DNA of 64,000 nt. It comes from Nitrospirota bacterium (lineage in GTDB: Bacteria > Nitrospirota > Thermodesulfovibrionia > Thermodesulfovibrionales > Dissulfurispiraceae). The translations under genes were made by a program, and so were the position numbers. The notes beneath the pieces were generated by a model, which did not search any database, was not told the origin of the DNA, and saw only the letters and a program-made list of their open reading frames with translations. Every line of letters starts with the position of its first letter. Positions within the stretch are counted from its first letter, which is position 1. The stretch is from positions 480,001 through 544,000 of the forward strand of contig CAWBMP010000005.1 in NCBI GenBank assembly GCA_963790025.1. The letters are read 5' to 3'. Shown piece after piece: positions 4,905 to 47,473 of the stretch.

Positions 4905-5645
4905 ATGAGAATCGAAAAAACTGTTGACAGGGAAAGCCAGCAGAAACTTTACGTCCAAATTTATTCTATTTTTAAAGAAAAAATGAAAATAGGAGAATGG
5001 CCTCCGGGAGTGCAGATACCTACTGAGGACGAGCTTTGCAGGATCTATGATATCAGTAAGGCGACAATAAGGATTGCTATTGCGGAGCTTGTGAGAGAGG
5101 GCTCACTAAAAAAGATTCAGGGTAAGGGCACCTTTGTCGTATCCTCAACTCTTTCCATCGGGTTAGTCATGAGAACACGATTGACCGAAGACATGTTAGG
5201 TCAGGGGGTGAAATCGACGAAAGAGCTGCTCCAAAAAGGCGTCAGGCTGCCATCTGATGAGATTAGGACCTATTTCGATGAAAAAGGTATTCTCTACTAT
5301 TATCGCTGCAAAGGCGTTGTAGAAGATGAGCCTGCATACATCGAAGAATCATATGTGCCGTTGGCATTGGTCCCGGGTATTGAAGCGGAGAATGTTGGTC
5401 GAGTCTCGCTTTACGAACTTATTCAGGAAAAGGCAATTGTGAAAATCTCAAGGGTGTTGCAGACTATCGAGGCTACCGAGATAAAGGATGAGGCTGCAGA
5501 AATTTTGTCGATCAGGGCGGGGTCTCCCGGACTGCTTTTGCACAGACTGCTCATGGGCCCTGACGAAGACCCGATAGCTTATACGCGACTTGTCGGGACC
5601 GGCGGAAAATACAGGATCCAGACTGAGTTTGAAAAAATCAAATAG
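4905..5645 (+). CDS. GntR-family (HutC/UTRA-type) transcriptional regulator, paralog of 1800-2558
   Basis: IPTEDELCRIYDISKATIRIAIAELVREGSLKKIQGKGTFV; similar C-terminus. Confidence 0.92.
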   Translation: MRIEKTVDRESQQKLYVQIYSIFKEKMKIGEWPPGVQIPTEDELCRIYDISKATIRIAIAELVREGSLKKIQGKGTFVVSSTLSIGLVMRTRLTEDMLGQGVKSTKELLQKGVRLPSDEIRTYFDEKGILYYYRCKGVVEDEPAYIEESYVPLALVPGIEAENVGRVSLYELIQEKAIVKISRVLQTIEATEIKDEAAEILSIRAGSPGLLLHRLLMGPDEDPIAYTRLVGTGGKYRIQTEFEKIK

Positions 5646-5672
5646 GCAATAAAACAAAGGGAGGAGTATATA

Positions 5673-6956
5673 ATGAGTATTCCGAGACAGGTTTTCGAAT
5701 TTCTAAAGATGGGTGCCCAGGCCCATGCCCGGTGGGAGATCGAAACTTCCTTGAGCATAATAAGAAACAGGAAAAAGCTTCTTGTCTTATTAGCTATGCT
5801 GGTGCCGATCCTGGTAGTGGGTTTTGCTGCGGCATCAGACATGATCGGCGGCAAGGAAGCCTATGCGCCCTCATTCTATTCCACATACATCTTTGTTGTT
5901 TCTATTGCCATTGGGCTGTGTGCAGGCCTGATCACGGGCTGTATAGGAGCGGGAGGCGGATTTGTTATAACCCCTGCGCTGATGGCTGCCGGAGTCAAGG
6001 GGATTCTGGCCGTAGGAACAGACCTTTTCCATATATTTGCAAAAGCGATCATGGGGACTGCAGTTCACAAGAAGCTGGGCAACGTTTCGGGGAAACTGGC
6101 AATCGCATTTCTGGTTGGTTCCGTTGGGGGCACCTTCATAGGCGGCTATATAAACAAGGCGATCTACACCTATGATCCTAATCTAAGCGATTTTTTTATC
6201 AGCATTGTCTATGCAATAGTTCTGGGATTTCTGGGGTTCTATGCGCTTTCGGACTTCTGGAAATCGACCAGGTCGAAGCAAGTTGTCGATGCCCATGGCA
6301 GGACGTCAGGGCTTACCGGCCTTGCAATAAATGTGCAGAGGTTAAAAATCCCGCCCTCGATTACTTTTGATGAAGACTTTGTGCCTGGAGGCAGACAAAT
6401 CTCCGCCGTAGTCGTGGCCCTTGGCGGTGTTATAGTGGGCTTGCTGGCTTCGGTAATGGGCATGGGAGGCGGCTTTGTCACATTCCCGATGTTTGTGTAC
6501 GTTTTCGGTGTTTCCTCGATGACGACAGTAGGGACCGATATCCTTCAGATCATCTTCACAGCAGGTGTCGGATCAATAGTGCAATACGCCATTTACGGGT
6601 ACGTATTCTATACGCTGGCAATGGGTATGCTTCTGGGCTCACTGATAGGCATCCAGATCGGGGCCCTGACAACGAAGGTTGTCAAAGGTATCCACATCAG
6701 GGGTTTCTATGCGGTAACGATCCTTGCGGGCTTTGTCAACAGGGCCGCAACACTGCCGAAGAAACTGGTAGAGTTCGAAATGATCAGTGTCTCAAAAACT
6801 ACGGTCAAGATGATCGAGTCAGCGGGGAACGTTTTGTTCTGGATAGTGGTAGGTGTGTTTACCGTGTGGGTGATCGGGAAGTTTTTAATGAATATAAGTA
6901 AACTGAGGGGCGAAGATGAATACGTAAAAGTCCCCTTGATTAAAAAGGAGGTGTAA
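5673..6956 (+). CDS. TauE/SafE (TSUP) family membrane transporter, long form
   Basis: GCIGAGGGFVITP and VMGMGGGFVTFP motifs, VGTD repeats. Confidence 0.88.
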   Translation: MSIPRQVFEFLKMGAQAHARWEIETSLSIIRNRKKLLVLLAMLVPILVVGFAAASDMIGGKEAYAPSFYSTYIFVVSIAIGLCAGLITGCIGAGGGFVITPALMAAGVKGILAVGTDLFHIFAKAIMGTAVHKKLGNVSGKLAIAFLVGSVGGTFIGGYINKAIYTYDPNLSDFFISIVYAIVLGFLGFYALSDFWKSTRSKQVVDAHGRTSGLTGLAINVQRLKIPPSITFDEDFVPGGRQISAVVVALGGVIVGLLASVMGMGGGFVTFPMFVYVFGVSSMTTVGTDILQIIFTAGVGSIVQYAIYGYVFYTLAMGMLLGSLIGIQIGALTTKVVKGIHIRGFYAVTILAGFVNRAATLPKKLVEFEMISVSKTTVKMIESAGNVLFWIVVGVFTVWVIGKFLMNISKLRGEDEYVKVPLIKKEV

Positions 6957-7770: not shown

Positions 7771-9141
7771 TCATTCCTCGTCTGCTTTTGCGAGCCCGAA
7801 TTTTTTCAGCTTTCTCCAGAGAGATACCCTGTCTATACCGAGTATCTGCGATGCAAGGGTCTTGTTACCGCCGACCTCGCCCAGCACCCACTGTATATAC
7901 GTTAACTCCTGGTCCTCAAGAGAAGGTATCTGGCCCCTCTTCTTCCTGAATGTCTTGATACTAAGCTCCCTCAGGTCCTCCGGCAGATGGGCGACTTCTA
8001 TTGACACACCATTGGAAAGCGCCACCCCGCGCTCTATAATGTTTTCCAGTTCCCTGACATTACCCGGGAAATCATAGTTCATGAGAAGCGCTATGACTTC
8101 CGGTGCTATTTCGCTGACCATTTTCTTCATCAGGCTTGCGTATTTCTTAAGGAAATAGTAGCTTAAGATATGGATATCTTCTTTCCTCTCGCAAAGAGGT
8201 GGGATGTACAATGAAACAACATTAATTCTAAAATAAAGGTCTTGCCTGAAGTTGCCGCTTTTTATGGCATCGGAGATGTCCCGGTTTGTCGCTGCTATAA
8301 ATCTGACGTCAACCTTTACCGTAGCTGTGGCACCCAGACGCAAGACCTCTTTCTCCTGGATTGCCCTGAGGAGCTTGACCTGCATGGAAGATGGCATCTC
8401 GGTGATCTCGTCCAGAAACAGCGTTCCTTCCGATGCCATTTCGATCAGCCCTTTTTTCATTGTCGCCGCTCCGGTAAAGGCGCCTTTCTCATGGCCGAAG
8501 AGTTCGTTTGAAAGCAGTTCCTCAGTAAAGGCCCCGCAGTTTACGGCAAAAAATGGGCCTTTTGAGCGGGTACTGCTATAGTGTATGAATTTTGCAAAGA
8601 TCTCCTTGCCGGTGCCGCTTTCCCCGCTGAGGAGCACATTGCAGTCAGTCGGAGCTATCTGGCGAGCCGTATCGATGAGCCGCTGCATAGATGGGTCCTG
8701 GGTAATGATCTTAACTTTACCTTCATAGGTCTCGATCTGCTCCCTGAGCTGAATGTTCTCGCGTTTTAAAAGGACTTTTTCGATGGCCTCCCTGACGACC
8801 TGCCGCACTTCGTCAAGCTTGAACGGTTTTGCCACATAGTAAAAGGCACCGTGTTTAATGCTATCAACAGCAGATTTGAGCGTTGCAAAGCCGGTGATCA
8901 TGATTACTTCAGTATCAGGATGGAGTTCCCGGCTGCGCTTCAATATTTCCATACCGTCCACTTTTTCCATTCTTAAGTCCGTAAGCACCACATCGAAATG
9001 CTGTTCATAAAGCAGTTTAAGCGCGTTTTGCCCGCTCTGGGTGGCCGTGACGTTGTACCCTTCCTTTTTCATGACATGTTCGAGGTTGCTAAGCGCTATT
9101 TTTTCATCGTCAACTATCAATATTTTTGCATTGTCATGCAT
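7771..9141 (-). CDS. Sigma-54-dependent two-component response regulator (REC-AAA+-Fis HTH, NtrC/AtoC type)
   Basis: REC (ILIVDDE..TDLRM..KPF), GESGTGKE, ELFGHEKGAFTGA, FPGNVRELEN, GGNKTLASQILGIDRVSLWRKLKK; start moved to ATG 9141 behind an AGGAGGA RBS. Confidence 0.95.
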   Translation of the reverse strand: MHDNAKILIVDDEKIALSNLEHVMKKEGYNVTATQSGQNALKLLYEQHFDVVLTDLRMEKVDGMEILKRSRELHPDTEVIMITGFATLKSAVDSIKHGAFYYVAKPFKLDEVRQVVREAIEKVLLKRENIQLREQIETYEGKVKIITQDPSMQRLIDTARQIAPTDCNVLLSGESGTGKEIFAKFIHYSSTRSKGPFFAVNCGAFTEELLSNELFGHEKGAFTGAATMKKGLIEMASEGTLFLDEITEMPSSMQVKLLRAIQEKEVLRLGATATVKVDVRFIAATNRDISDAIKSGNFRQDLYFRINVVSLYIPPLCERKEDIHILSYYFLKKYASLMKKMVSEIAPEVIALLMNYDFPGNVRELENIIERGVALSNGVSIEVAHLPEDLRELSIKTFRKKRGQIPSLEDQELTYIQWVLGEVGGNKTLASQILGIDRVSLWRKLKKFGLAKADEE

Positions 9142-38267: not shown

Positions 38268-39860
38268 TCAGAGTACCACCGCCAATTTTTCCGGAACATG
38301 TCCTTTGTATTGCTTGAAATTATTGCGGAACTGTTCCACCAGGTTCTTTGCGGCTGCATCGTAGGCCGCCTTGTCAGCCCATACATTGCGGGGTTTCAGC
38401 ACATCGGCGGGCACGCCAGGACAGGCCTTCGGGACTATGAGCCCAAAGAAAGACTCCTCCTCAAATTCGCCGTTTGCCAGTGTGCCGTCAAGTGCGGTAT
38501 TGACAAGCACCCTTGAATAGGCAATCTTCATCCGGCTTCCAACGCCGTAGCCGCCGCCGCTCCAGCCCGTATTCACCAGCCAGCAGTCGACTTTGTAGTT
38601 CGAAATCTTTTCATTGAGGAGTTCGGCATAGACTGAAGGATGGAGCGCCATGAACGGGGCGCCAAAGCAGGCGGAAAAAGTCGCCTGCGGTTCGGTAACG
38701 CCTGCCTCTGTACCGGCCACTTTGGCGGTATATCCGGATAGGAAATGGTACATGGCCTGTTCCGGGGTCAACTTGGCAATAGGAGGCAATACACCAAAAG
38801 CGTCGCAGGTGAGCATGATTATATTGGATGGATGCCTCCCCATGCCCGATCGAATTATATTGGGTATATGAGTGACCGGATAGGAGGCGCGGGTGTTTTC
38901 AGTGAAGGAGTCGTCATCCATGTCTATTCTGCGGCTTACCGTATCGATGGCGACGTTTTCGAGGATGGTGCCGAATCTTCTGGTGGTTTGATAGATTTCC
39001 GGCTCCGATTCCACTGAAAGTCTTATGATCTTGGCATAGCAGCCACCTTCGAAGTTGAATATACCATTATTATCCCAGCCGTGCTCATCGTCGCCTATCA
39101 GGGACCGTTTTGGATCAGCGGATAGCGTGGTCTTGCCTGTGCCCGAGAGGCCGAAAAAGATGGCCACATCCCCTTTTCCACCGGCATTGGCCGAGCAGTG
39201 CATGGATAGGATATGGTTTTCATGAGGCAATAAATAGTTCAGGATGGTAAAGATTGACTTCTTGATCTCGCCGGCATAACTCGTACCGCCGATGATGATT
39301 AACCGCTTCGCGAAATTCACGATGATGAAGGTTTCACTGTTAGTGCCGTCAACGGAAGGGATTGCATGAAAACTGGGGGTGTCGATGACTGTAAAGGCCG
39401 GTTTGTGTTTGACCAGCTCCTCCTCAGTGGCCCGGATAAACATGTTCCTGGCAAATAGGGAGTGCCACGCATTTTCGGTAATCACCCTCACCGGGAGGCG
39501 ATGCTCGGGACTTGCACCCGCAAAGCAGTCCTGGACGAACAGGTCCTTGCCATGCAAGTAAGCCAGCAGTCTTTTGTAAAGACCGTCAAATTTGGCCGGG
39601 TCTAACGGCTGGTTCACTTTACCCCAGTTGATATGAGCATGACATGACGGTTCGTCGACGATGAATTTTTCGTTAGCGGCCCGCCCGGTATAATGGCCCG
39701 TTTTAACAGCGACCGCTCCCAAATGGGTAATAAGGCCTTCGCCCCGTCTCACGATCTGCTCATATAGTACAGGGGTGGGAGGGGTCCAAAAGATCAGATT
39801 TGCATTGGTAATTCCGTGTTCTTCGAGGCCCGTCCCTCTGGTAATGTCATTTAATTTCAT
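38268..39860 (-). CDS. pckA: Phosphoenolpyruvate carboxykinase (ATP)
   Basis: YAGEIKKSIF, FFGLSGTGKTTLS, IGDDEHGW, NFEGGCYAK. Confidence 0.97.
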   Translation of the reverse strand: MKLNDITRGTGLEEHGITNANLIFWTPPTPVLYEQIVRRGEGLITHLGAVAVKTGHYTGRAANEKFIVDEPSCHAHINWGKVNQPLDPAKFDGLYKRLLAYLHGKDLFVQDCFAGASPEHRLPVRVITENAWHSLFARNMFIRATEEELVKHKPAFTVIDTPSFHAIPSVDGTNSETFIIVNFAKRLIIIGGTSYAGEIKKSIFTILNYLLPHENHILSMHCSANAGGKGDVAIFFGLSGTGKTTLSADPKRSLIGDDEHGWDNNGIFNFEGGCYAKIIRLSVESEPEIYQTTRRFGTILENVAIDTVSRRIDMDDDSFTENTRASYPVTHIPNIIRSGMGRHPSNIIMLTCDAFGVLPPIAKLTPEQAMYHFLSGYTAKVAGTEAGVTEPQATFSACFGAPFMALHPSVYAELLNEKISNYKVDCWLVNTGWSGGGYGVGSRMKIAYSRVLVNTALDGTLANGEFEEESFFGLIVPKACPGVPADVLKPRNVWADKAAYDAAAKNLVEQFRNNFKQYKGHVPEKLAVVL

Positions 39861-39866
39861 AGTGAC

Positions 39867-40061
39867 CTATTCGCCGGCATCAGACGAAGAGCTTTTCTCG
39901 AACACCTGAGAATTTATATTGCCGGACTCGGGTCCTCCGCACTCAGGGATATAACAAGTAACGTTGACATATTCACACTTTTCTTTACACGACGGGCAGA
40001 TATCCAGGGGAATATCTGCATCTATTGTATTACCGCATTTGTTACATTTCCATATCGCCAC
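39867..40061 (-). CDS. Rubredoxin-like small protein
   Basis: WKCNKCG...CPSCKEKCEYVNVTCYIPECGGP; AAGGGAGG RBS, GTG start. Confidence 0.8.
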   Translation of the reverse strand: MAIWKCNKCGNTIDADIPLDICPSCKEKCEYVNVTCYIPECGGPESGNINSQVFEKSSSSDAGE

Positions 40062-40382
40062 GGGTGCCTCCCTTAAAAAGAAGATCTATTCAACCAACCT
40101 ACCAGTAATTTATAGCCTGAGAGTATATATAAAGTCAAGGCCCTGCACCGAGCCAAAGACCGGAAATGGCGCATTAAAGGAGGTATTGAACGGGAAATGA
40201 CTTTCTTGATCAAAATGTAATTGTTCTGTAACTTTGTTGACTTAACATTCATGCATTCATGTGTGTCGTCATCTGAGAAGTTGTCCTGAGACATTGACAA
40301 TCAGAACAGGACTATGTAATCATTTATCCCAAGCCAAAAACGGTTATGCAGCGTAATAAAAGATAAAAGGGGAGGAATTTTT

Positions 40383-41300
40383 ATGTATCTTTACCTGCCA
40401 GTAGCTTTAACAAGTATCAATGTCCTGGTTCCTGTTGGACTTGGACTGGCCGTGGGACTGCTATCCGGACTCTTTGGCGTTGGGGGTGGCTTTCTCATGA
40501 CACCTCTTCTGATAATGTGCGGCATTCCATCGACAGTTGCAGCAGCAACTGATTCAAATCAGATTGTCGCGGCATCGACCTCGGGCACTTATGCTCATTG
40601 GAAGGTCGGCAATGTCGATTTCAAGATGGGACTTTACCTTTTGGCAGGCGGCTTTGCCGGGGGGCTTCTCGGCGTTGAAGGGATAAAGGTGTTAAGGGCC
40701 ATGGGCAACGCGGATTTTGTCATAAAGATGACATACGTGCTTATGCTCGGCTCAGTCGGCAGCTATATGTTATATGAAAGCCTTTCAAGCATGAGAAAGA
40801 AAAAAGTGCACGAGGCCGTAGAGGAGCGGGAATCGTCATTTGGCAGGTTTCTCAGGTCACTGCCCCTTCAAACATTTTTTGAAAAATCAGGGGTATCACA
40901 CTCGGTGCTTATACCCATTGTTTTCGGCGGCATTGTCGGAATACTTGCGGCAGTTATGGGTGTGGGCGGAGGCTTCCTGATGGTGCCGGTCATGGTGTAC
41001 ATCCTGAGGATGCCCATGCATGTCGTTGTAGGGACAAGCCTTTTCCAGATACTTTTCAATTGTATTGAAGTTACTTTTCTGCAGGCAACTACAAATCATA
41101 CGGTCGACTTTATCCTTGCCGTCCTTTTACTGATCGGTTCTACCGTGGGAGCACAGATTGGGGCGGTCTTTGGCAGGAAACTCAAGGCGGACCAGCTCAA
41201 GGTGATTTTGGCGGTAATAGTGCTCGTGGTTACAGTAAAAATAGTTTTTGAGCTTACGCTTAGCCCGTCGTTGTTCCTGGCTCAATCAGGCGGCCATTAA
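40383..41300 (+). CDS. TauE/SafE (TSUP) family transporter
   Basis: GLFGVGGGFLMTP and VMGVGGGFLMVP repeats; ends GGH. Confidence 0.9.
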   Translation: MYLYLPVALTSINVLVPVGLGLAVGLLSGLFGVGGGFLMTPLLIMCGIPSTVAAATDSNQIVAASTSGTYAHWKVGNVDFKMGLYLLAGGFAGGLLGVEGIKVLRAMGNADFVIKMTYVLMLGSVGSYMLYESLSSMRKKKVHEAVEERESSFGRFLRSLPLQTFFEKSGVSHSVLIPIVFGGIVGILAAVMGVGGGFLMVPVMVYILRMPMHVVVGTSLFQILFNCIEVTFLQATTNHTVDFILAVLLLIGSTVGAQIGAVFGRKLKADQLKVILAVIVLVVTVKIVFELTLSPSLFLAQSGGH

Positions 41301-41365
41301 TGGCCGAAATAGTTGAGAAGTCTATAAAGAGCGCCCCCTGCCCGGTGCTTGTGGTAGCGGCATAA
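41300..41365 (+). pseudogene. 21-codon remnant of a USP gene (start fused to the C-terminal motif)
   Basis: MAEIVEKSIKSAPCPVLVVAA*, matching the USP tail (APCPVLVV); ATG overlaps the TauE stop. Confidence 0.6.
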
Positions 41366-41403
41366 AGATTAGGTATAGGCAAAGGTAAAGATAAGATAAA
41401 AAT

Positions 41404-41431
41404 AAAAAGGGGTCATTACTGACCCCTTTTT
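41404..41431. terminator. Bidirectional intrinsic terminator
   Basis: AAAAAGGGGTCA-ttac-TGACCCCTTTTT between convergent genes. Confidence 0.88.
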
Positions 41432-41439
41432 TAAACTTT

Positions 41440-41457
41440 ATAGTGCACCTGCACTAT
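41440..41457 (-). promoter_or_regulatory. SECIS-like hairpin downstream of the second UGA
   Basis: mRNA AUAGUGC-AGGU-GCACUAU; loop starts ~22 nt after UGA 41474-41472. Confidence 0.75.
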
Positions 41458-41732
41458 TTCTTGCTTCCGCTTCAACTGCCCTGTGAAGGTTTCTCTTCGG
41501 TCCCTTTTTGCATGTCCGGGTTTGTCGCTTCGTCTGTTTTTTTGTCTTTATCTTTGTCTTTATCCTGGTCCTTGTCTTTATCCTGATTCGGCTGTTGCCA
41601 TTGAGTGCCACCTGCACCCATACCACCGCTTCAGGCAGCCCATGCGTTTTCAGCGCCCGATAAGCCGGCCCCGGCGATCAGGGTGGCGATACCCAGACCG
41701 GCAAGAAGCCTTTGGAGATGCTCCCTTTGCAT
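41454..41732 (-). CDS. sbtA: Selenocysteine-containing RiPP precursor peptide, SbtA/selenobiotic type, 92 aa with two UGA(Sec) codons (not in ORF track)
   Basis: AAGGAGG RBS; MQREHLQRLLAGLGIATLIAGAGLSGAENAWAA-U-SGGMGAGGTQWQQPNQDKDKDQDKDKDKDKKTDEATNPDMQKGTEEKPSQGS-U-SGSKK*; UGA at 41633-41631 and 41474-41472; nearby rSAM maturase. Confidence 0.87.
41603..41619 (-). promoter_or_regulatory. SECIS-like hairpin downstream of the first UGA
   Basis: mRNA GGGUGC-AGGUG-GCACUC; loop starts ~18 nt after UGA 41633-41631. Confidence 0.72.
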
Positions 41733-41823
41733 TTTTTCCTCCTTTCTACTAATGATAACTGCCTAAGCTCCTGCAAGGCAGGGATGTCCACTGGATAGAA
41801 AAAAACAATGTCAAACTAAATAG

Positions 41824-41861
41824 TGATAGATATATTCTATCATAGATAGCTATACTGTCAA
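41824..41861 (-). promoter_or_regulatory. Sigma-70 promoter for the precursor peptide overlapped by a LysR-type palindrome
   Basis: Minus strand TTGACA (41861-41856), 16 bp, TAGAAT (41839-41834) with extended TG; TGATAG-N7-CTATCA at 41824-41842. Confidence 0.62.
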
Positions 41862-41916
41862 GTGCCTATTACTCAGCGGAAATGAGGTTCATTTTTGCAC
41901 GCATGATGACTGATGC

Positions 41917-43536
41917 TCAGACACTGAACTGGTCCACGATATCCTTCAGATGGCCGGACAGCCGGGCCAGTTCGGACGAGGACTGCGCAATCTGATCGGA
42001 CCCGCCGGAAACCTCTTTTGCACCTCCTGCAACAGCCTGAATGTCCCCGCTGATTGCTTCAGAGGTTGTAGACATTTCCTCTGTCGCGGTTGCGATCTGT
42101 TGCACCATGTTTTGAAGAGATGTTACGCTCTGTACGATGGCCTTAAGCTGCTCTCCAGCCTCGATCGAGTACTGAAGTCCTGTATTCACCTTTTCGTTCG
42201 TGAGATTCATTGCAGCAACGGCGCTGTCAACTTCGCTTTGAATAGCTCCGATCATCTGACTGATTTCAGAAGTGGCTTTTGCGGTCCGTTCAGCGAGTTT
42301 CCGCACCTCGTCGGCAACAACAGAAAACCCGCGACCTTGTTCTCCTGCGCGTGCGGCTTCAATTGCAGCGTTCAGTGCAAGCAGATTTGTCTGATCAGCA
42401 ATATCGTTGATAACAGCCACAATTTCGCCGATCTGTTTAGACTTTTCGCCTAGCGATTGCATGACGCGGGTCGATGTGTTGACTGTTTCAGCTATGCTCC
42501 TTGATTCGGCTACAGATTTGGCGACTACTTCCGCCCCTGTTCTGGCGATGTCTGCGGTTTCCGATGAAGATTGAGCAATGCTTGAAGCGTTTCTTGCAAT
42601 GTCGATGACTGTTTGGGACATTTCTTCGGCGGAAGTTGCGATCTGTGATGAGCGGTTTGATTGATCGGACATTGTCCTGGTAATCTCTTCGGAACTCGCG
42701 CTCAAGTGTTCGCTGCCGGAGGCGACGCTTGCAGACGCCCGCTTGATATCTCTGATCACGCCTTTGAGTTTGACGACCATTGCTTTCATTGCATCGAGCA
42801 ATTGTCCGGTTTCGTTTTTGCCTGTGGCTTCGATCTCAACCGTGAGGTCGCCGGACGCTATTTTGGCGGTTGTCTCGACCGCGTCGAGCAGCGGCCCGGT
42901 GATGCTTCTGATTATCCACAGGGTCACGAAGATTGCAATCGCCAACGCCGATGCACTCAGGATGATAATTGATATCCTGACAGTCTTCGCCTTGCTGCTG
43001 GCTGCATCTGCGTGCAATTTCGCCTGTTCCTTGATAAAAATATCCATGTCATCTACTGACTTAAGGTACGCGGCCTGTAATGCCTCGAATTCAGACAGCA
43101 GTCGGACAGCTTCATTTCTATTGCCGTCCATGAGGGATTTGACGATTTGATCTCTCATGTCGGCAGACGGCTTTCTCCTGTCGAGCATTGACTGATACAG
43201 GGCCTTCCCTTTTTCAGATTGCACGAGGGCTTTGAGTTTGTCAAAATTATCGCTGATACTTTTTCTTGAGCCCAGCATGTGCTCTATTTCTTTTTCCAGG
43301 CTTTCTTTGTTTTCGGCCATAAAGGCTTTTTCAAGATGAGTGGTCGCCGTGAGAATGTTCGCGGTGAGGTCCCCCAGAATAAGAGCCTGAGGCAGACGTT
43401 TATCACCCATTTCCCGGATATTGCCGCTCAGAGACGAAATTGACAGATATGCGGTAAGAGAAATTGAGATGACCAGCACAATCACAATTCCAAAGCCGAT
43501 AAATAACTTTGTCTTGATTTTCAGGTCCTTTGTCAC
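41917..43536 (-). CDS. Methyl-accepting chemotaxis protein (four-helix sensor, HAMP, MCP signal domain)
   Basis: Two TM helices; [40 protein letters not shown]. Confidence 0.96.
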
Positions 43537-43557
43537 TTTATTTGCCTCCCGTACATC

Positions 43558-45153
43558 TTATTTATTACTATCCATAATGGTGAAAAAGCAATAAGGGTCT
43601 TTCTCCTTGAAGATATCCAGGCCGCGGCTGTATGCTGCAGCGAGGCAACCGCCGCAGCCTGGACGAATAGGGCAGGCTGAGCATGCACCGCAGCCGGCAC
43701 GGTATCGTTGTGCCTTCACCGAGTCATAGATTTCGGCAAGACCTTGTTCGTTTATGTTCCCGATGAAGGAAGGAAATTTTCGGCAGGCATGCACCTCGCC
43801 GTCGGGAAGAAGGGCAAGGAAATTGAACGCCGCGCCGCATCCGAAGCCGGTGCAGCCTCCAAACGGCGCAAGCCCTTCCTGCCGGCGGATAATATTGATG
43901 AGATTATCCTTGATCCCGAGGACCGGGTTTACCTCTGCGGTTTTTATATAGGATTCGAGGAAGCGAATATATTGGTCCCTTCCCGGCAGTTTAAGCTGCG
44001 CCCCTTCTCCAACCATGGAGAGACGGTTGAAATTGAAAGTGTCGGCGAGACCGTGAAGGAATTCACCGAGGGGCAGTATCTGTTCGATATTGTCTTGTGT
44101 GAGCGTGAGCATTACCATAGAATAGACACCGAGTTCCCTGAGCAGTTCAAGAAAATTGACGGTCCGCTCGAAATGGCCCGGGCCGCGGATCGAATCATTA
44201 TGCTTCTGCAGGCCCTCAAGACTGACCTGGAAAAAATCGGGACGCTGGATCGAGACAATTTCTCCGATAAGCTGTCGCGGTGAAGGGTTACCCAGGATAG
44301 ATAGGATGAAGCCCTTATCAGCCGCGCCGCGGTAAAGTTCGAGGAAATGAGGATATAACAGGGGGTTGCCACCGGAAAAGGAGATCCGTCCCTTCACGTG
44401 CCTGTTACGGCAGAAATCATGGAAGTCATCGAGAATGTCCAATGCTTTCCTGAAGTTGACAGTCGAACGGCTGGTGCGGTCGTAGCAGTGCTTGCAATGG
44501 AGGTCGCATGCCTGGGTAATATGCCATTGCAATGTGAACGAGGTTGTGACACGGAATGAGTCATCGAAAGGTCCTGCAGCCGAAAAAATTCCGGGGTCAC
44601 GTTTCAGAAGTGAAGGAGGTGAAAGCAGGATGCCGCGCTTTATTGCACGATCAACAGCGGCGTCAACTGCTGAAACAGCAATCTTCCCTTCAGCAGCCAC
44701 CTTATTAGACGGCATCCCCTCGACTGCCATCTTGAGGACGAGCAAGTCCTCATCCGTGGCCGGCCTGCATTTGACCTCGCCGCTAACAGGGCTTTTCCAG
44801 ACGAGCAACATCTCCGCACCGCGAAGGGGCACTTCTCCGGACGTTTCGCGATTGTCGGCGATAAAGGTGAACAGGTTTTTCCACCTGAGAGGGAGCACCT
44901 CAAGGGCGGGGTTCACATCGAGCGTGTCAGTACCCGATGGTATTTCGGCAGCATTAATCCTGGCCATAGCCAATTCAAGTCGCACCAGATCAGAAATAAA
45001 AGGAGGCAAACCATGAGTGTCTGCACAGAGGGTGAGAACATCGGGAATCATATCGGCTGCAGGCGCGGGGCTGCGTGAGGAGATGATCCTATCCCACGAT
45101 TCCCTGCCAATAAGAGAGATACAAGCGCTGTAAATATCTTCGAGCCTCATCAT
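43558..45153 (-). CDS. sbtM: Radical SAM/SPASM peptide maturase, SbtM/selenobiotic type
   Basis: TLQWHITQACDLHCKHCYDR (CX3CX2C), GGCTGFGCGAAFNF, C-terminal SPASM cysteines, long N-terminal extension; start reassigned to ATG 45153/45150. Confidence 0.88.
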   Translation of the reverse strand: MMRLEDIYSACISLIGRESWDRIISSRSPAPAADMIPDVLTLCADTHGLPPFISDLVRLELAMARINAAEIPSGTDTLDVNPALEVLPLRWKNLFTFIADNRETSGEVPLRGAEMLLVWKSPVSGEVKCRPATDEDLLVLKMAVEGMPSNKVAAEGKIAVSAVDAAVDRAIKRGILLSPPSLLKRDPGIFSAAGPFDDSFRVTTSFTLQWHITQACDLHCKHCYDRTSRSTVNFRKALDILDDFHDFCRNRHVKGRISFSGGNPLLYPHFLELYRGAADKGFILSILGNPSPRQLIGEIVSIQRPDFFQVSLEGLQKHNDSIRGPGHFERTVNFLELLRELGVYSMVMLTLTQDNIEQILPLGEFLHGLADTFNFNRLSMVGEGAQLKLPGRDQYIRFLESYIKTAEVNPVLGIKDNLINIIRRQEGLAPFGGCTGFGCGAAFNFLALLPDGEVHACRKFPSFIGNINEQGLAEIYDSVKAQRYRAGCGACSACPIRPGCGGCLAAAYSRGLDIFKEKDPYCFFTIMDSNK

Positions 45154-45230
45154 ATCGGTCACATAGCTGCCCACTGTTGATATAATAATATAATAATAGA
45201 ACCTTTGAGTGTCCCAGTGCAAACACAAAG

Positions 45231-45279
45231 ACAGGTAAAGGTAACTTCTGTTTTTACCTCTACTGTTACCTTTACCTGT
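45231..45279. repeat. Hexamer-built inverted repeat (AGGTAN family), perfect 15-bp arms
   Basis: ACAGGTAAAGGTAAC (45231-45245) / GTTACCTTTACCTGT (45265-45279). Confidence 0.8.
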
Positions 45280-45422
45280 TTTTTTGGTGTTATAGCGTAA
45301 GTGGCGATTAGATGTGTTATAATCGAACAAAACTTATGGATGAATTTTTGTCTTTTTGTTAAACTTATCGAATCAGTCAGGTAGATTCTTTCACGCTTTA
45401 ATTATGACTTTGGAGGCGAGTA

Positions 45423-45719
45423 TTGAAAAGGGTTTCTGTAGAAAACCTCAAACCGGGGACTAAACTTGCTAAACCTGTACTTAATGACAGCGGCATGATT
45501 ATCATCGGCGATGGTACTGTATTGTCGGACTCTCATATAAGTCGCCTGCAGAATATGAACATAAGCAGTGTTTTTGTCGAGGGGACGGCAGGGCCTTCAA
45601 AAAGCAAGGAAGAACTTCTGGCCGAACTGGATGCCAGGTTCAAAAAAACAGGGGAAGAGCCGTACATGTCGATATTGAAGAGGGTATTGAAAGAGCAGAT
45701 AGAAGGCAAGGGCATTTGA
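45423..45719 (+). CDS. Hypothetical protein resembling the N-terminal region of HD-GYP proteins
   Basis: LKPGTKLAKPVLNDSGMIII..GTVL...I.RLQNMNISSVFV; GGAGG RBS, TTG start. Confidence 0.75.
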   Translation: MKRVSVENLKPGTKLAKPVLNDSGMIIIGDGTVLSDSHISRLQNMNISSVFVEGTAGPSKSKEELLAELDARFKKTGEEPYMSILKRVLKEQIEGKGI

Positions 45720-45720
45720 G

Positions 45721-46557
45721 ATGGAAATTCGGGACTTGAGAAGTCAGATTGAAAAGATCGATGCGCTTCCTACAATACCCAGCATATTGAGAAAGCTGCT
45801 GGCTGTTATCGAGAGGCCCAAGATTTCAATTAGCGAGATTGGCAGTTTCATTGCCAATGATCCTGTGCTCACGTCGAGGGTGCTCAAAGTCGTCAACTCG
45901 CCGATTTACGGCTTTCCGGGCAGAATATCCTCTCTGAATCAGGCTTTGATATTGCTCGGCCTCAATGTGGTGAGAGGGATGCTGCTCGGCGTTTCCGTTT
46001 TCGAGGCAATGGAAAAGACCATGTCAGGTCTATGGGAGCATTCACTCGGCTGTGCCATTGCCTCGCGTATTGTCGCAAAGAGAATGGGAGTTAAAGAGCC
46101 GGAGGAAGTTTCTGTTGCCGCTTTGCTGCATGATATCGGAAAAGTGGTACTGGGTCTTAAATTTCCCGAGGAATACCGTCAGGTGATGGGCAGTGCCGAA
46201 ACGGAAGGGATCTTTATCTTCGAGGCCGAGAAGAGATCTTTTAATATTAACCATGCCGATGCAGGCGGATGGATCTCCCTTAAGTGGAACTTTCCCAGCA
46301 ACCTTGTTGAGCCGATTGAATATCACCACAAGCCTCACCTTGCCAAAATAGTCCCCCTTCAGACGGCAATAGTCCATTTTGCGGATGTGTTAACGCGAGC
46401 CAAGGGGTTCGGTTTTGCCGGCGATCACTTTGTCCCTGCAGTGCATCCGGCGGCATGGAAGTTGCTCAACCTTTCCGAGGATGACTTGAAGGAAATAATA
46501 TCGGAACTGGAAGATTCATTAGACGAGGCCGGTGGCTTCCTGCTTTCCGATGAGTAA
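45721..46557 (+). CDS. HDOD domain protein
   Basis: LPTIP, DPVLTSRVLKVVNS, LWEHS, LLHDIGK, YHH. Confidence 0.92.
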   Translation: MEIRDLRSQIEKIDALPTIPSILRKLLAVIERPKISISEIGSFIANDPVLTSRVLKVVNSPIYGFPGRISSLNQALILLGLNVVRGMLLGVSVFEAMEKTMSGLWEHSLGCAIASRIVAKRMGVKEPEEVSVAALLHDIGKVVLGLKFPEEYRQVMGSAETEGIFIFEAEKRSFNINHADAGGWISLKWNFPSNLVEPIEYHHKPHLAKIVPLQTAIVHFADVLTRAKGFGFAGDHFVPAVHPAAWKLLNLSEDDLKEIISELEDSLDEAGGFLLSDE

Positions 46558-47473
46558 TACCAAGACTGTTGTTGTTATCTCCAAAGACCCGGTACTAACC
46601 GGCATAATCGGCAAGTTCCTTGAAGGGTCCTACCAGGTCATCGAATTCGCCGCCCTCCCATCTTCACTGGATTATATATATAGTTCGATTCCCGATGTAT
46701 TGCTGCTGGACATAACATCCGATGATCCGGTTATGGTTACGACGCTTAATGATTTAAAAAGTGATCCTATTCTGGGCAGCCTGTCCATATTTGCAATTTT
46801 CGGAGATGCCTTTGCCGTTCCACATTGGGATTATCTGCTTGTCGATGATTACATTAAGCGATCATTGCTGGAAGATGAATTACTGTCACGGGTTGAATTG
46901 TGCATACAGAGGGCGGAGCGGACGATCGAAGTAAATCCGCTGACACGGTTACCCGGAAATATTCAAATCACAAAACAGATACAAAAGCGGTTGGATGCCG
47001 GTGAGCAATTTGCACTCGCTTATGCCGACCTCGATCACTTTAAACCATACAACGACCGCTACGGATTCAGCCGGGGCGATGAAGTCCTGAAGATGCTCGG
47101 CAGGCTTATACTCAATACTGTTAAAGAGAGACATCCTTACGGCAGTTTTGTCGGGCATATCGGTGGAGATGATTTTGTATTCATGATGGATTGCGATGCC
47201 GCTGCTGAGACTTCAGAAAAGATTATCGGTTATTTCGACGAGATCATCCCCACTTTTCACGACATGGACGACAGGACAAAGGGACACATAGAATCCACGG
47301 ACAGGGAGGGAAAAAAAAGGGTATTCCCTCTCATAAGCCTGTCAATCGGCATTGCGCATAATAGGATGAGAAAGTTTACCCACTATGGGGCGATGGCCGA
47401 AGTCGCATCTGAAGTGAAAAAATTTGCCAAGACAGTTGTCGGCAGCTGCGTAAAGAGCGATCAAAGACATTAA
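46550..47473 (+). CDS. Diguanylate cyclase (degenerate REC + GGDEF)
   Basis: NPLTRLPGN, DLDHFKPYNDRYG..RGDEVL, HIGGDDF. Confidence 0.9.
   Translation: MSNTKTVVVISKDPVLTGIIGKFLEGSYQVIEFAALPSSLDYIYSSIPDVLLLDITSDDPVMVTTLNDLKSDPILGSLSIFAIFGDAFAVPHWDYLLVDDYIKRSLLEDELLSRVELCIQRAERTIEVNPLTRLPGNIQITKQIQKRLDAGEQFALAYADLDHFKPYNDRYGFSRGDEVLKMLGRLILNTVKERHPYGSFVGHIGGDDFVFMMDCDAAAETSEKIIGYFDEIIPTFHDMDDRTKGHIESTDREGKKRVFPLISLSIGIAHNRMRKFTHYGAMAEVASEVKKFAKTVVGSCVKSDQRH

Follow-up and report, generated by a model that had tools for sequence, protein, structure and literature searches.

The DNA analysed here (the window) is a 64,000-nucleotide stretch from a Nitrospirota bacterium (assembly GCA_963790025.1, contig CAWBMP010000005.1, positions 480,001 to 544,000 of the forward strand). 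At 41732-41454 its minus strand carries a short gene, sbtA, which very probably encodes a thio(seleno)oxazole precursor of the class of ribosomally synthesized peptides that are modified after translation (RiPP), in which both in-frame UGA codons specify selenocysteine (Sec) and which is modified by the enzyme SbtM and exported. The gene, both of its recoding signals, the machinery for Sec and the partner enzyme are all present in this genome. The locus is a new member of the already described SbtA family, and its gene arrangement is a minority one. A hairpin resembling a selenocysteine insertion sequence (SECIS) comes after each UGA, and the features of the gene and its partner are as follows.

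43558..45153, minus strand: sbtM, radical S-adenosylmethionine (SAM)/SPASM maturase, 531 aa from ATG 45153 (TIGR04082, Pfam Radical_SAM and SPASM).
41834..41861, minus strand: sigma-70-like promoter in the spacer ahead of sbtA, TTGACA, 16 nt, TAGAAT, with TG before the -10 element (pattern match).
41744-41738, minus strand: ribosome-binding site AAGGAGG, 5 nt ahead of ATG 41732 (sequence).
41454..41732, minus strand: sbtA, 92 codons and TAG at 41456-41454, with U34 and U87 from TGA (translation and TIGR04081).
41634..41732, minus strand: leader resembling a signal peptide, residues 1-33, ending A-W-A-A (translation and family consensus; putative cleavage site).
41633-41631, minus strand: UGA codon 34, assigned to Sec (sequence and translation).
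41582..41635, minus strand: SECIS 1, extended stem-loop with the apical hairpin GGGUGC AGGUG GCACUC at 41619-41603 (fold, covariation, fdhF register).
41538..41582, minus strand: low-complexity (DK)n linker, residues 51-65 (translation).
41474-41472, minus strand: UGA codon 87, assigned to Sec (sequence and translation).
41440..41457, minus strand: SECIS 2, 7-bp hairpin AUAGUGC AGGU GCACUAU (fold, covariation).
41404..41431, minus strand: intrinsic terminator, 12-bp stem and then a T run (fold and pattern match).

On translation, the only in-frame stops of sbtA before TAG are TGA34 and TGA87, and with TGA read as U the product is MQREHLQRLLAGLGIATLIAGAGLSGAENAWAA-U-SGGMGAGGTQWQQPNQ-(DK)n-KTDEATNPDMQKGTEEKPSQGS-U-SGSKK. 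Sec34 is followed by SGGMGAGGTQW and Sec87 lies in PSQGS-U-SGSKK. The two TGAs share the nucleotide context TGAAGCGG, and their residue contexts, AAUSG and GSUSG, are both present in the family tally given below. In the open reading frame (ORF) list made with genetic code table 11, no ORF of at least 40 aa starts from 41732 and the sole in-frame entry is 41472..41621 (49 aa), from the middle of the frame, so standard gene calling would overlook sbtA or cut it short. An initial annotation, made from the letters of the window and its ORF list, had described the AAGGAGG site and ATG 41732 (minus), a 92-codon frame broken only by UGA34 and UGA87, the common context of the two UGAs with a shared hairpin core GUGC-AGGU(G)-GCAC, and the overlooked ORF start; the sequence is as it described. 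Its end coordinate of 41440 has to be corrected, as the ORF ends at 41454 and 41440 is the end of the second hairpin.

The promoter-like site agrees with the sigma-70 consensus at 11 of 12 positions (pattern match only). Together with the terminator it frames the sbtA ORF, which suggests a small transcription unit of its own, both signals being pattern matches only. A search of public sequencing runs listed no RNA runs and four DNA metagenome runs (best word share, 0.31), and is silent on expression either way. No second sbtA was found upstream of sbtM (45330-45720) or elsewhere in the genome.

The sbtA leader scores 31.2 bits, with a cut-off of 30.5, in the NCBIfam model for SbtA family thio(seleno)oxazole RiPP precursors (TIGR04081), residues 1-25 falling on model positions 1-25 of 27. 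SbtM matches TIGR04082 along the whole model (positions 1-516 of 516) at 716.4 bits with a cut-off of 350. The pair of hidden Markov models (HMMs) that the initial annotation had named is thus matched on both sides. The open frame of sbtM extends back to TTG 45330 (590 residues), and the TIGR04082 model starts at residue 66 of it, which fits a start at ATG 45153. The radical SAM motif CX3CX2C is found as CDLHCKHC at 216-223 (C216-C220-C223), and cysteines of the SPASM region occur at 434, 439, 457, 488, 491, 494, 500, 503 and 522. The next-best family, TIGR04340 (ACGX-system radical SAM/SPASM maturase), shares the radical SAM and SPASM core; its match covers residues 264-583 of the 590-residue frame and, at 147.1 bits, is far under the 400-bit cut-off. 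SbtM differs from it in an extra N-terminal domain of about 200 residues that lies outside TIGR04340. The genome contains one SbtM above the cut-off and one SbtA.

SECIS 1 lies within the coding sequence, where its codons encode G-A-G-G-T. SECIS 2 spans the UAG stop codon, which is in its 5' arm, and the remainder belongs to the 3' untranslated region. Counted from the U of UGA as +1, the loop AGGUG is at +21..+25 in SECIS 1 and the loop AGGU at +25..+28 in SECIS 2, so that both stem-loops begin a short way after their UGA and have G in the apical loop, as bacterial SECIS elements do. The SECIS 1 region folds at -23.4 kcal/mol (z -2.95; 2 of 200 shuffles equal it) and SECIS 2 at -10.2 kcal/mol (z -2.40; 5 of 200 shuffles equal it), so that the fold check proposed for both UGAs gave a hairpin after each. 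The hairpin core GTGCAGGT(G)GCAC has 3 copies in the 3.45-Mb genome (both strands), 2 of which are those in sbtA. The third copy (C4:1443711) was considered as a SECIS and rejected; because no open frame surrounds it, we treat it as chance. From the rarity of the core, the shuffled folds and the recurrence with compensatory changes in homologs, the two sbtA hairpins exceed chance expectation.

The apical part of SECIS 1 resembles the SECIS of Escherichia coli fdhF (NC_000913.3), with UGCAGGU at +18 to +24 in both, counted in the same way, and a loop that carries G22, G23 and U24. SECIS 2 differs from it in sitting 4 nt further from the UGA and in spanning a stop codon. The fdhF element presumably also has a bulged U at position 17, which the closing stem GGGUGC/GCACUC of SECIS 1 is without.

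A wider scan for SbtM found 180 stretches that encode it. The 80 best of these were retained and, with 6 loci from relatives, make 86 loci (given below by L numbers). SbtM is patchy among relatives, being found in 7 of 41 genomes searched (the window's own counted) and, within the same genus, in 2 of 10 genomes, one of them with a truncated copy. The leader HMM detected an SbtA gene at 77 of the 86 SbtM loci of other genomes and none at L040, L046, L058, L088, L100, L104, L107, L110 and L119 (9 of 86); at least L046, L058 and L088 have less than 350 bases of flank upstream of sbtM. After removal of duplicates, 77 distinct peptides were left, and 5 were set aside as reading through all TGAs gave tails of more than 130 aa. 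The tallies are therefore based on 72 peptides of at most 130 aa (71 from the loci plus the window's own), and TIGR04081 is matched by 72 of 72 scanned peptides at E <= 0.01.

Of these peptides, 5 have no Sec, 9 have one, 23 two, 24 three, 10 four and 1 has five, so two Sec are ordinary for the SbtA family. The commonest contexts are SGUSG, SGUGG and SSUSG; GSUSG occurs 10 times and AAUSG twice. Cys-containing homologs had been proposed as a check at both positions, and they were found at both: Cys stands in for Sec at N-proximal sites in L062, L054 and L076 and at the C-terminal site in L036 (SSCTGTKK) and L037 (SGCSGSKQ). Five SbtA peptides have Cys only. Rather than stopping at the first UGA, the homologs run on with conserved downstream motifs.

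In a strict hairpin test (a stem of at least 5 bp, with a loop that contains G and begins 16-29 nt after the codon), 151 of 170 motif UGAs pass, as do 8 of 29 motif Cys codons and, among arbitrary TGA triplets in sbtM, 429 of 1829. With RNAalifold, 116 internal and 53 C-terminal sites gave the same 5-bp apical stem, with compensatory changes in 5 of 5 pairs in each set. The stems were then extended (one inner pair in the internal set; one inner and one outer pair in the C-terminal set), and double changes occur in 6 of 6 pairs of the internal set and 6 of 7 pairs of the C-terminal set. In the internal set, 90.7% of cells are paired (75.6% when shuffled) and the covariation score is 0.445 (0.200 shuffled; reached by 0 of 500 shuffles; slid controls at most 0.144). 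For the C-terminal set the values are 92.0% (74.4% when shuffled) and 0.458 (0.165 shuffled; 0 of 500 shuffles; slid controls at most 0.129). The shuffles ignore relatedness, for which the slid controls correct.

The stem bases GGU GCA GGU GGC ACY are at the same time the codons for G-A-G-G-T. The synonymous third position in the codon of the first Gly forms a pair with the base that opens the fifth codon (U-A 69, C-G 27, unpaired 6), which indicates that selection acts on the RNA. By this pairing, GAGGT, GAGGA, GTGST and DAGGV are variants of a single stem, driven by the RNA. Of 135 internal Sec, 104 have an xAGxT-like motif after them, compared with 1 of 33 internal Cys.

The genome also encodes the complete set for Sec insertion, all members scoring above curated cut-offs: selB (355 bits), selA (608.9 bits), selD (320.1 bits, with one in-frame TGA) and tRNA-Sec (68.2 bits), as the proposed check for selA/selB/selC/selD called for. 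Because this machinery is present, the hairpins show compensatory changes and Cys replaces Sec at both kinds of site, both sbtA UGAs are almost certainly read as Sec, and the initial annotation, which had suggested this decoding, is upheld by these lines and by the conserved downstream motifs. The selD gene (L010, G000:C4:824216-825151, minus) is itself a selenoprotein gene (MEKVRAAG-U-AAKIGP...), and a GGUCC-GGC-GGACC hairpin comes after its TGA, about as far from it as the sbtA hairpins are from theirs.

Two other readings of the gene dispute this decoding. UGA87 could be a true stop, with UGA34 alone recoded and the hairpin after UGA87 forming part of the 3' end structure of the transcript. 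UGA87 is only 5 codons ahead of TAG, and Sec insertion so near a stop is beyond proof from sequence; the hairpin that follows is short, and a strong terminator lies 9 nt further. We nevertheless hold this reading to be very unlikely, considering that the U-S-G-S-K-K tail with a stop 4-5 codons later recurs (30 of 67 Sec peptides have their last Sec 4 or 5 residues before the end), that L036 and L037 have Cys exactly at this C-terminal site, and that SECIS 2 keeps the AGGU/AGUU loop of the internal SECIS, covaries in 53 sequences and is without a T run of its own. A reading in which neither UGA is recoded, leaving a peptide of at most 33 residues or a decayed pseudogene with hairpins that are chance or regulatory RNA, is scarcely credible. 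The empty standard ORF list at sbtA would agree with it; but the frame is open for 92 codons save for the two TGAs, the downstream motifs are kept in 72 homologs beside SbtM, the ribosome-binding site, promoter-like site and terminator frame exactly the sbtA ORF, and the Cys/Sec alternation, covarying hairpins and full Sec machinery argue against non-recoding.

Several observations weigh against a modified di-Sec SbtA at this locus. SECIS 2 is short and, taken by itself, its 7-bp fold at -10.2 kcal/mol is matched by 5 of 200 shuffles, and 19 of 170 homolog UGAs did not pass the strict hairpin test. An Rfam scan of 40500-42500 at E <= 10 returned no SECIS family; its 11 matches are all below the gathering score, of sRNA type and on the terminator. 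The bacterial SECIS models of Rfam are few and lineage-specific. The TIGR04081 margin is only 0.7 bits, and this model spans the leader alone. In addition, sbtA is not adjacent to sbtM, as a chemoreceptor gene intervenes and sbtA has its own promoter-like site. With these points included, the assignment of sbtA as a di-Sec SbtA precursor stays very probable.

Some homologs depart from the usual pattern. L042, L043, L045, L060 and L075 are the Cys-only peptides, with (K)TSCSG(G/K) repeats and without the GAGGT motif and hairpins; in L075 the repeat array contains a run of N. In L038, L086, L105 and L109 a TGA is directly followed by TAG, and L035, L061, L099, L102 and L106 have U-S-U ends (two UGAs one codon apart); a hairpin still follows in both groups, and by sequence their last UGA may be either Sec or the stop. 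L036 has two sbtA copies (5634-5915 and 8220-8468) flanking one sbtM. The copy with the C-terminal Cys (SSCTGTKK) keeps a hairpin across TAG (UAGGGC AGGUU GCCCUG), and this Cys looks like a recent change from Sec. The SbtA of L084 (3362-3691) has an unrelated hydrophobic tail after its first Sec motif, while its near relative L085 (2153-2389) continues normally; the divergent tail probably reflects a frameshift, a pseudogene or faulty assembly. The most Sec-rich peptide, L113 (6384-6752), contains five Sec in modules of about 21 residues (GSGUSGxKDxAGGx...) with one hairpin each. At L040 (5980-7044, in genome G004 of the same genus), the match of an SbtM-like ORF of about 354 aa is confined to model positions 172-516, so that it lacks the N-terminal domain, and no SbtA was found in the roughly 6 kb to each side; this copy may have decayed or be put to a different use.

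The gene that lies between sbtM and sbtA is the following.

41917..43536, minus strand: methyl-accepting chemotaxis protein (MCP) gene, 539 aa (MCPsignal, HAMP, 4HB_MCP_1).

The MCP gene begins 21 nt past the sbtM stop and separates sbtM from sbtA, which is on the same strand with sbtM 1.8 kb upstream. The initial annotation had paired SbtA with the maturase at 43558-45153; the TIGR04082 match bears out the partner, and the two genes are separated rather than adjacent. With the MCP gene between them and a promoter-like site at sbtA itself, co-regulation of sbtM and sbtA is at most a possibility. Generally, the precursor gene sits directly upstream of sbtM and shares its strand (66 of 74 homolog peptides; 59 of these are clear cases, and 7 count as overlap because of over-long ORF calls), and in 8 of 74 it is downstream, a minority to which the window's sbtA also belongs. 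At L041, the closest SbtM relative (63% identity), sbtA is 169 nt after sbtM and the leader end AWAAU is shared with the window.

Clustering of 729 neighbouring ORFs (86 loci and the window) put SbtM in 81 sources and the next cluster in 7, and no conserved partner gene besides sbtM and sbtA recurs among them. At the other 86 SbtM loci no ortholog of the MCP gene was found, the best match having 30% identity over the signalling domain. A gene for a TauE/SafE-family membrane protein (40383-41300, plus) converges on sbtA, and HDOD and GGDEF-domain genes (45721-47473, plus) diverge from sbtM; these also have no counterparts at other SbtM loci. The MCP, TauE/SafE, HDOD and GGDEF genes are therefore not counted in the system.

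The SbtA leader (family consensus MDxxxLKKxLAGLxIAGLxxGAxL) is signal-peptide-like, yet it is conserved beyond what a signal peptide needs. In 34 of 72 peptides it has a lipobox-like motif ending in Cys, which the others, the window's included, are without. The A-W-A-A end of the window's leader would fit a signal peptidase I site cut as A-W-A/A. A predicted fold of SbtM with leader residues 1-33 (custom alignments) scored 0.59, the best of 3 controls scoring 0.00; runs agree in at least 74% of contacts and the partner pLDDT (predicted local distance difference test) is at least 66. Of 157 solved complexes, 116 reach the mark it passed, as do 2 of 215 mismatches, and among those passing at a score of 0.60 or under are only 18 of the 157 solved complexes and both passing mismatches. 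The fold is compatible with, and lends weak support to, the leader doubling as the recognition sequence of SbtM.

Taken together, the proposed pathway would run as follows. SelB carrying Sec-tRNA would read each hairpin, and Sec would be inserted at codons 34 and 87. In the cytoplasm, SbtM, an oxygen-sensitive enzyme, would bind the conserved leader and turn Sec34 and Sec87, in the S/A-U-S-G context of the family, into 5-seleno-oxazoles with the loss of four hydrogens (-4 H) per site. The peptide would then be exported by the Sec translocon (the general secretory channel) and its leader cut at A-W-A/A by signal peptidase I. The mature product would be about 59 residues long, hydrophilic, acidic/basic and disordered, with a selenium heterocycle near each end, and would act outside the cytoplasm.

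The SbtA family and its two Sec are already in print (PMC13188914, PMC11002830). As summarized in the passages on the family in these two sources, SbtM and its substrate SbtMa were studied by Lewis et al. (Biochemistry 2021). According to those in PMC11002830, a 2024 review, SbtA precursors have a SECIS directly 3' of the TGA, and SbtM takes four hydrogens off Cys and Sec substrates, the Cys product being a thiooxazole by nuclear magnetic resonance. Sec-containing RiPPs had been proposed bioinformatically, per the corresponding passage of a 2016 review (PMC4979651). The window agrees with this system in its TIGR04081 leader and TIGR04082 enzyme, in Sec within an S/G-rich motif with a SECIS directly after the UGA, in a two-gene cassette without a further conserved partner, and in two Sec per peptide, as in the table row of a 2026 review ("Selenobacteriocin, TIGR04081, SGUG, 2 Sec"; PMC13188914). 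It differs in that sbtA is downstream of sbtM with the MCP gene between and its own promoter-like site, in the A-x-A leader end compared with a lipobox in 34 of 72 peptides, and in the (DK)n run of the linker. The GAGGT/SECIS footprint and the stop-codon-in-stem arrangement are not described in the review passages on the family.

Bufferins (BufA; modified by a multinuclear non-heme iron-dependent oxidative enzyme (MNIO)/DUF692 with DUF2063) offer a parallel for a function. Their precursors are ribosomal and carry a Sec-type signal peptide at the N-terminus, and in the periplasm their 5-thiooxazoles bind copper (10.1101/2024.03.18.585515). The conversion of Cys-type residues into 5-thiooxazoles takes place in the cytoplasm, ahead of export, and there is no dedicated transporter, as would also hold for SbtA. 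Their oxygen-using MNIO is different from the anaerobic radical SAM/SPASM enzyme at the sbtA locus, and SbtA has selenium for sulfur and a disordered repetitive core in place of a small folded protein. Pfam found no DUF692 or DUF2063 domain on the 7 ORFs scanned in 38268-47473. The resemblance of SbtA to bufferins is in the way of working, not in membership; bufferins bind copper via their heterocycles, and metal binding by SbtA is suggested by analogy only.

With low confidence, and by analogy with the thiooxazole bufferins, the mature peptide may serve in soft-metal binding or redox chemistry outside the cytoplasm. The same di-Sec SbtA modified by SbtM might instead give an antimicrobial product, as the name "Selenobacteriocin" attached to the TIGR04081 family in the table of the 2026 selenoproteome review (PMC13188914) suggests, and antimicrobial activity is common among RiPPs. 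By the clustering of the 729 ORFs, however, no immunity, dedicated exporter or leader-protease gene recurs by the cassette, and the lipobox-like leaders, seen in 34 of 72 peptides, would anchor the product in the membrane of the cell that makes it. SbtA cores are also long, hydrophilic, repetitive and K/E/D/P/G-rich, and the known thiooxazole peptides with Sec signal peptides, the bufferins, are described as copper buffers. We regard an antimicrobial product as quite unlikely, and a metal-binding or redox role is favoured over a bacteriocin because the cassette is without an exporter, protease or immunity gene and many leaders are of lipoprotein type. Carried further, SbtA would be the selenium counterpart of bufferins, an exported or lipid-anchored peptide with one to five seleno-oxazole ligands on a flexible chain, which captures soft metals (Cu, Hg, Cd, Ni) or shuttles electrons at the cell surface of anaerobes, the chemoreceptor gene tying the system to chemotaxis; in this full form the idea is a speculation that we think unlikely to hold.

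If it is true, the MCP gene 21 nt past the sbtM stop could link the system to chemotaxis, e.g. through sensing of a metal or of the loaded peptide. The sbtA locus adds one unusual gene arrangement to the family. The G-A-G-G-T "peptide motif" after internal Sec is the footprint that the SECIS stem leaves in translation; it covaries at the RNA level and is missing after 32 of 33 internal Cys. sbtA would be a clean natural example of two recoded UGAs within 92 codons, with the second SECIS built across the stop codon, and since SECIS 1 copies the apical loop of E. coli fdhF in sequence and register, sbtA may be expressible with Sec in E. coli.

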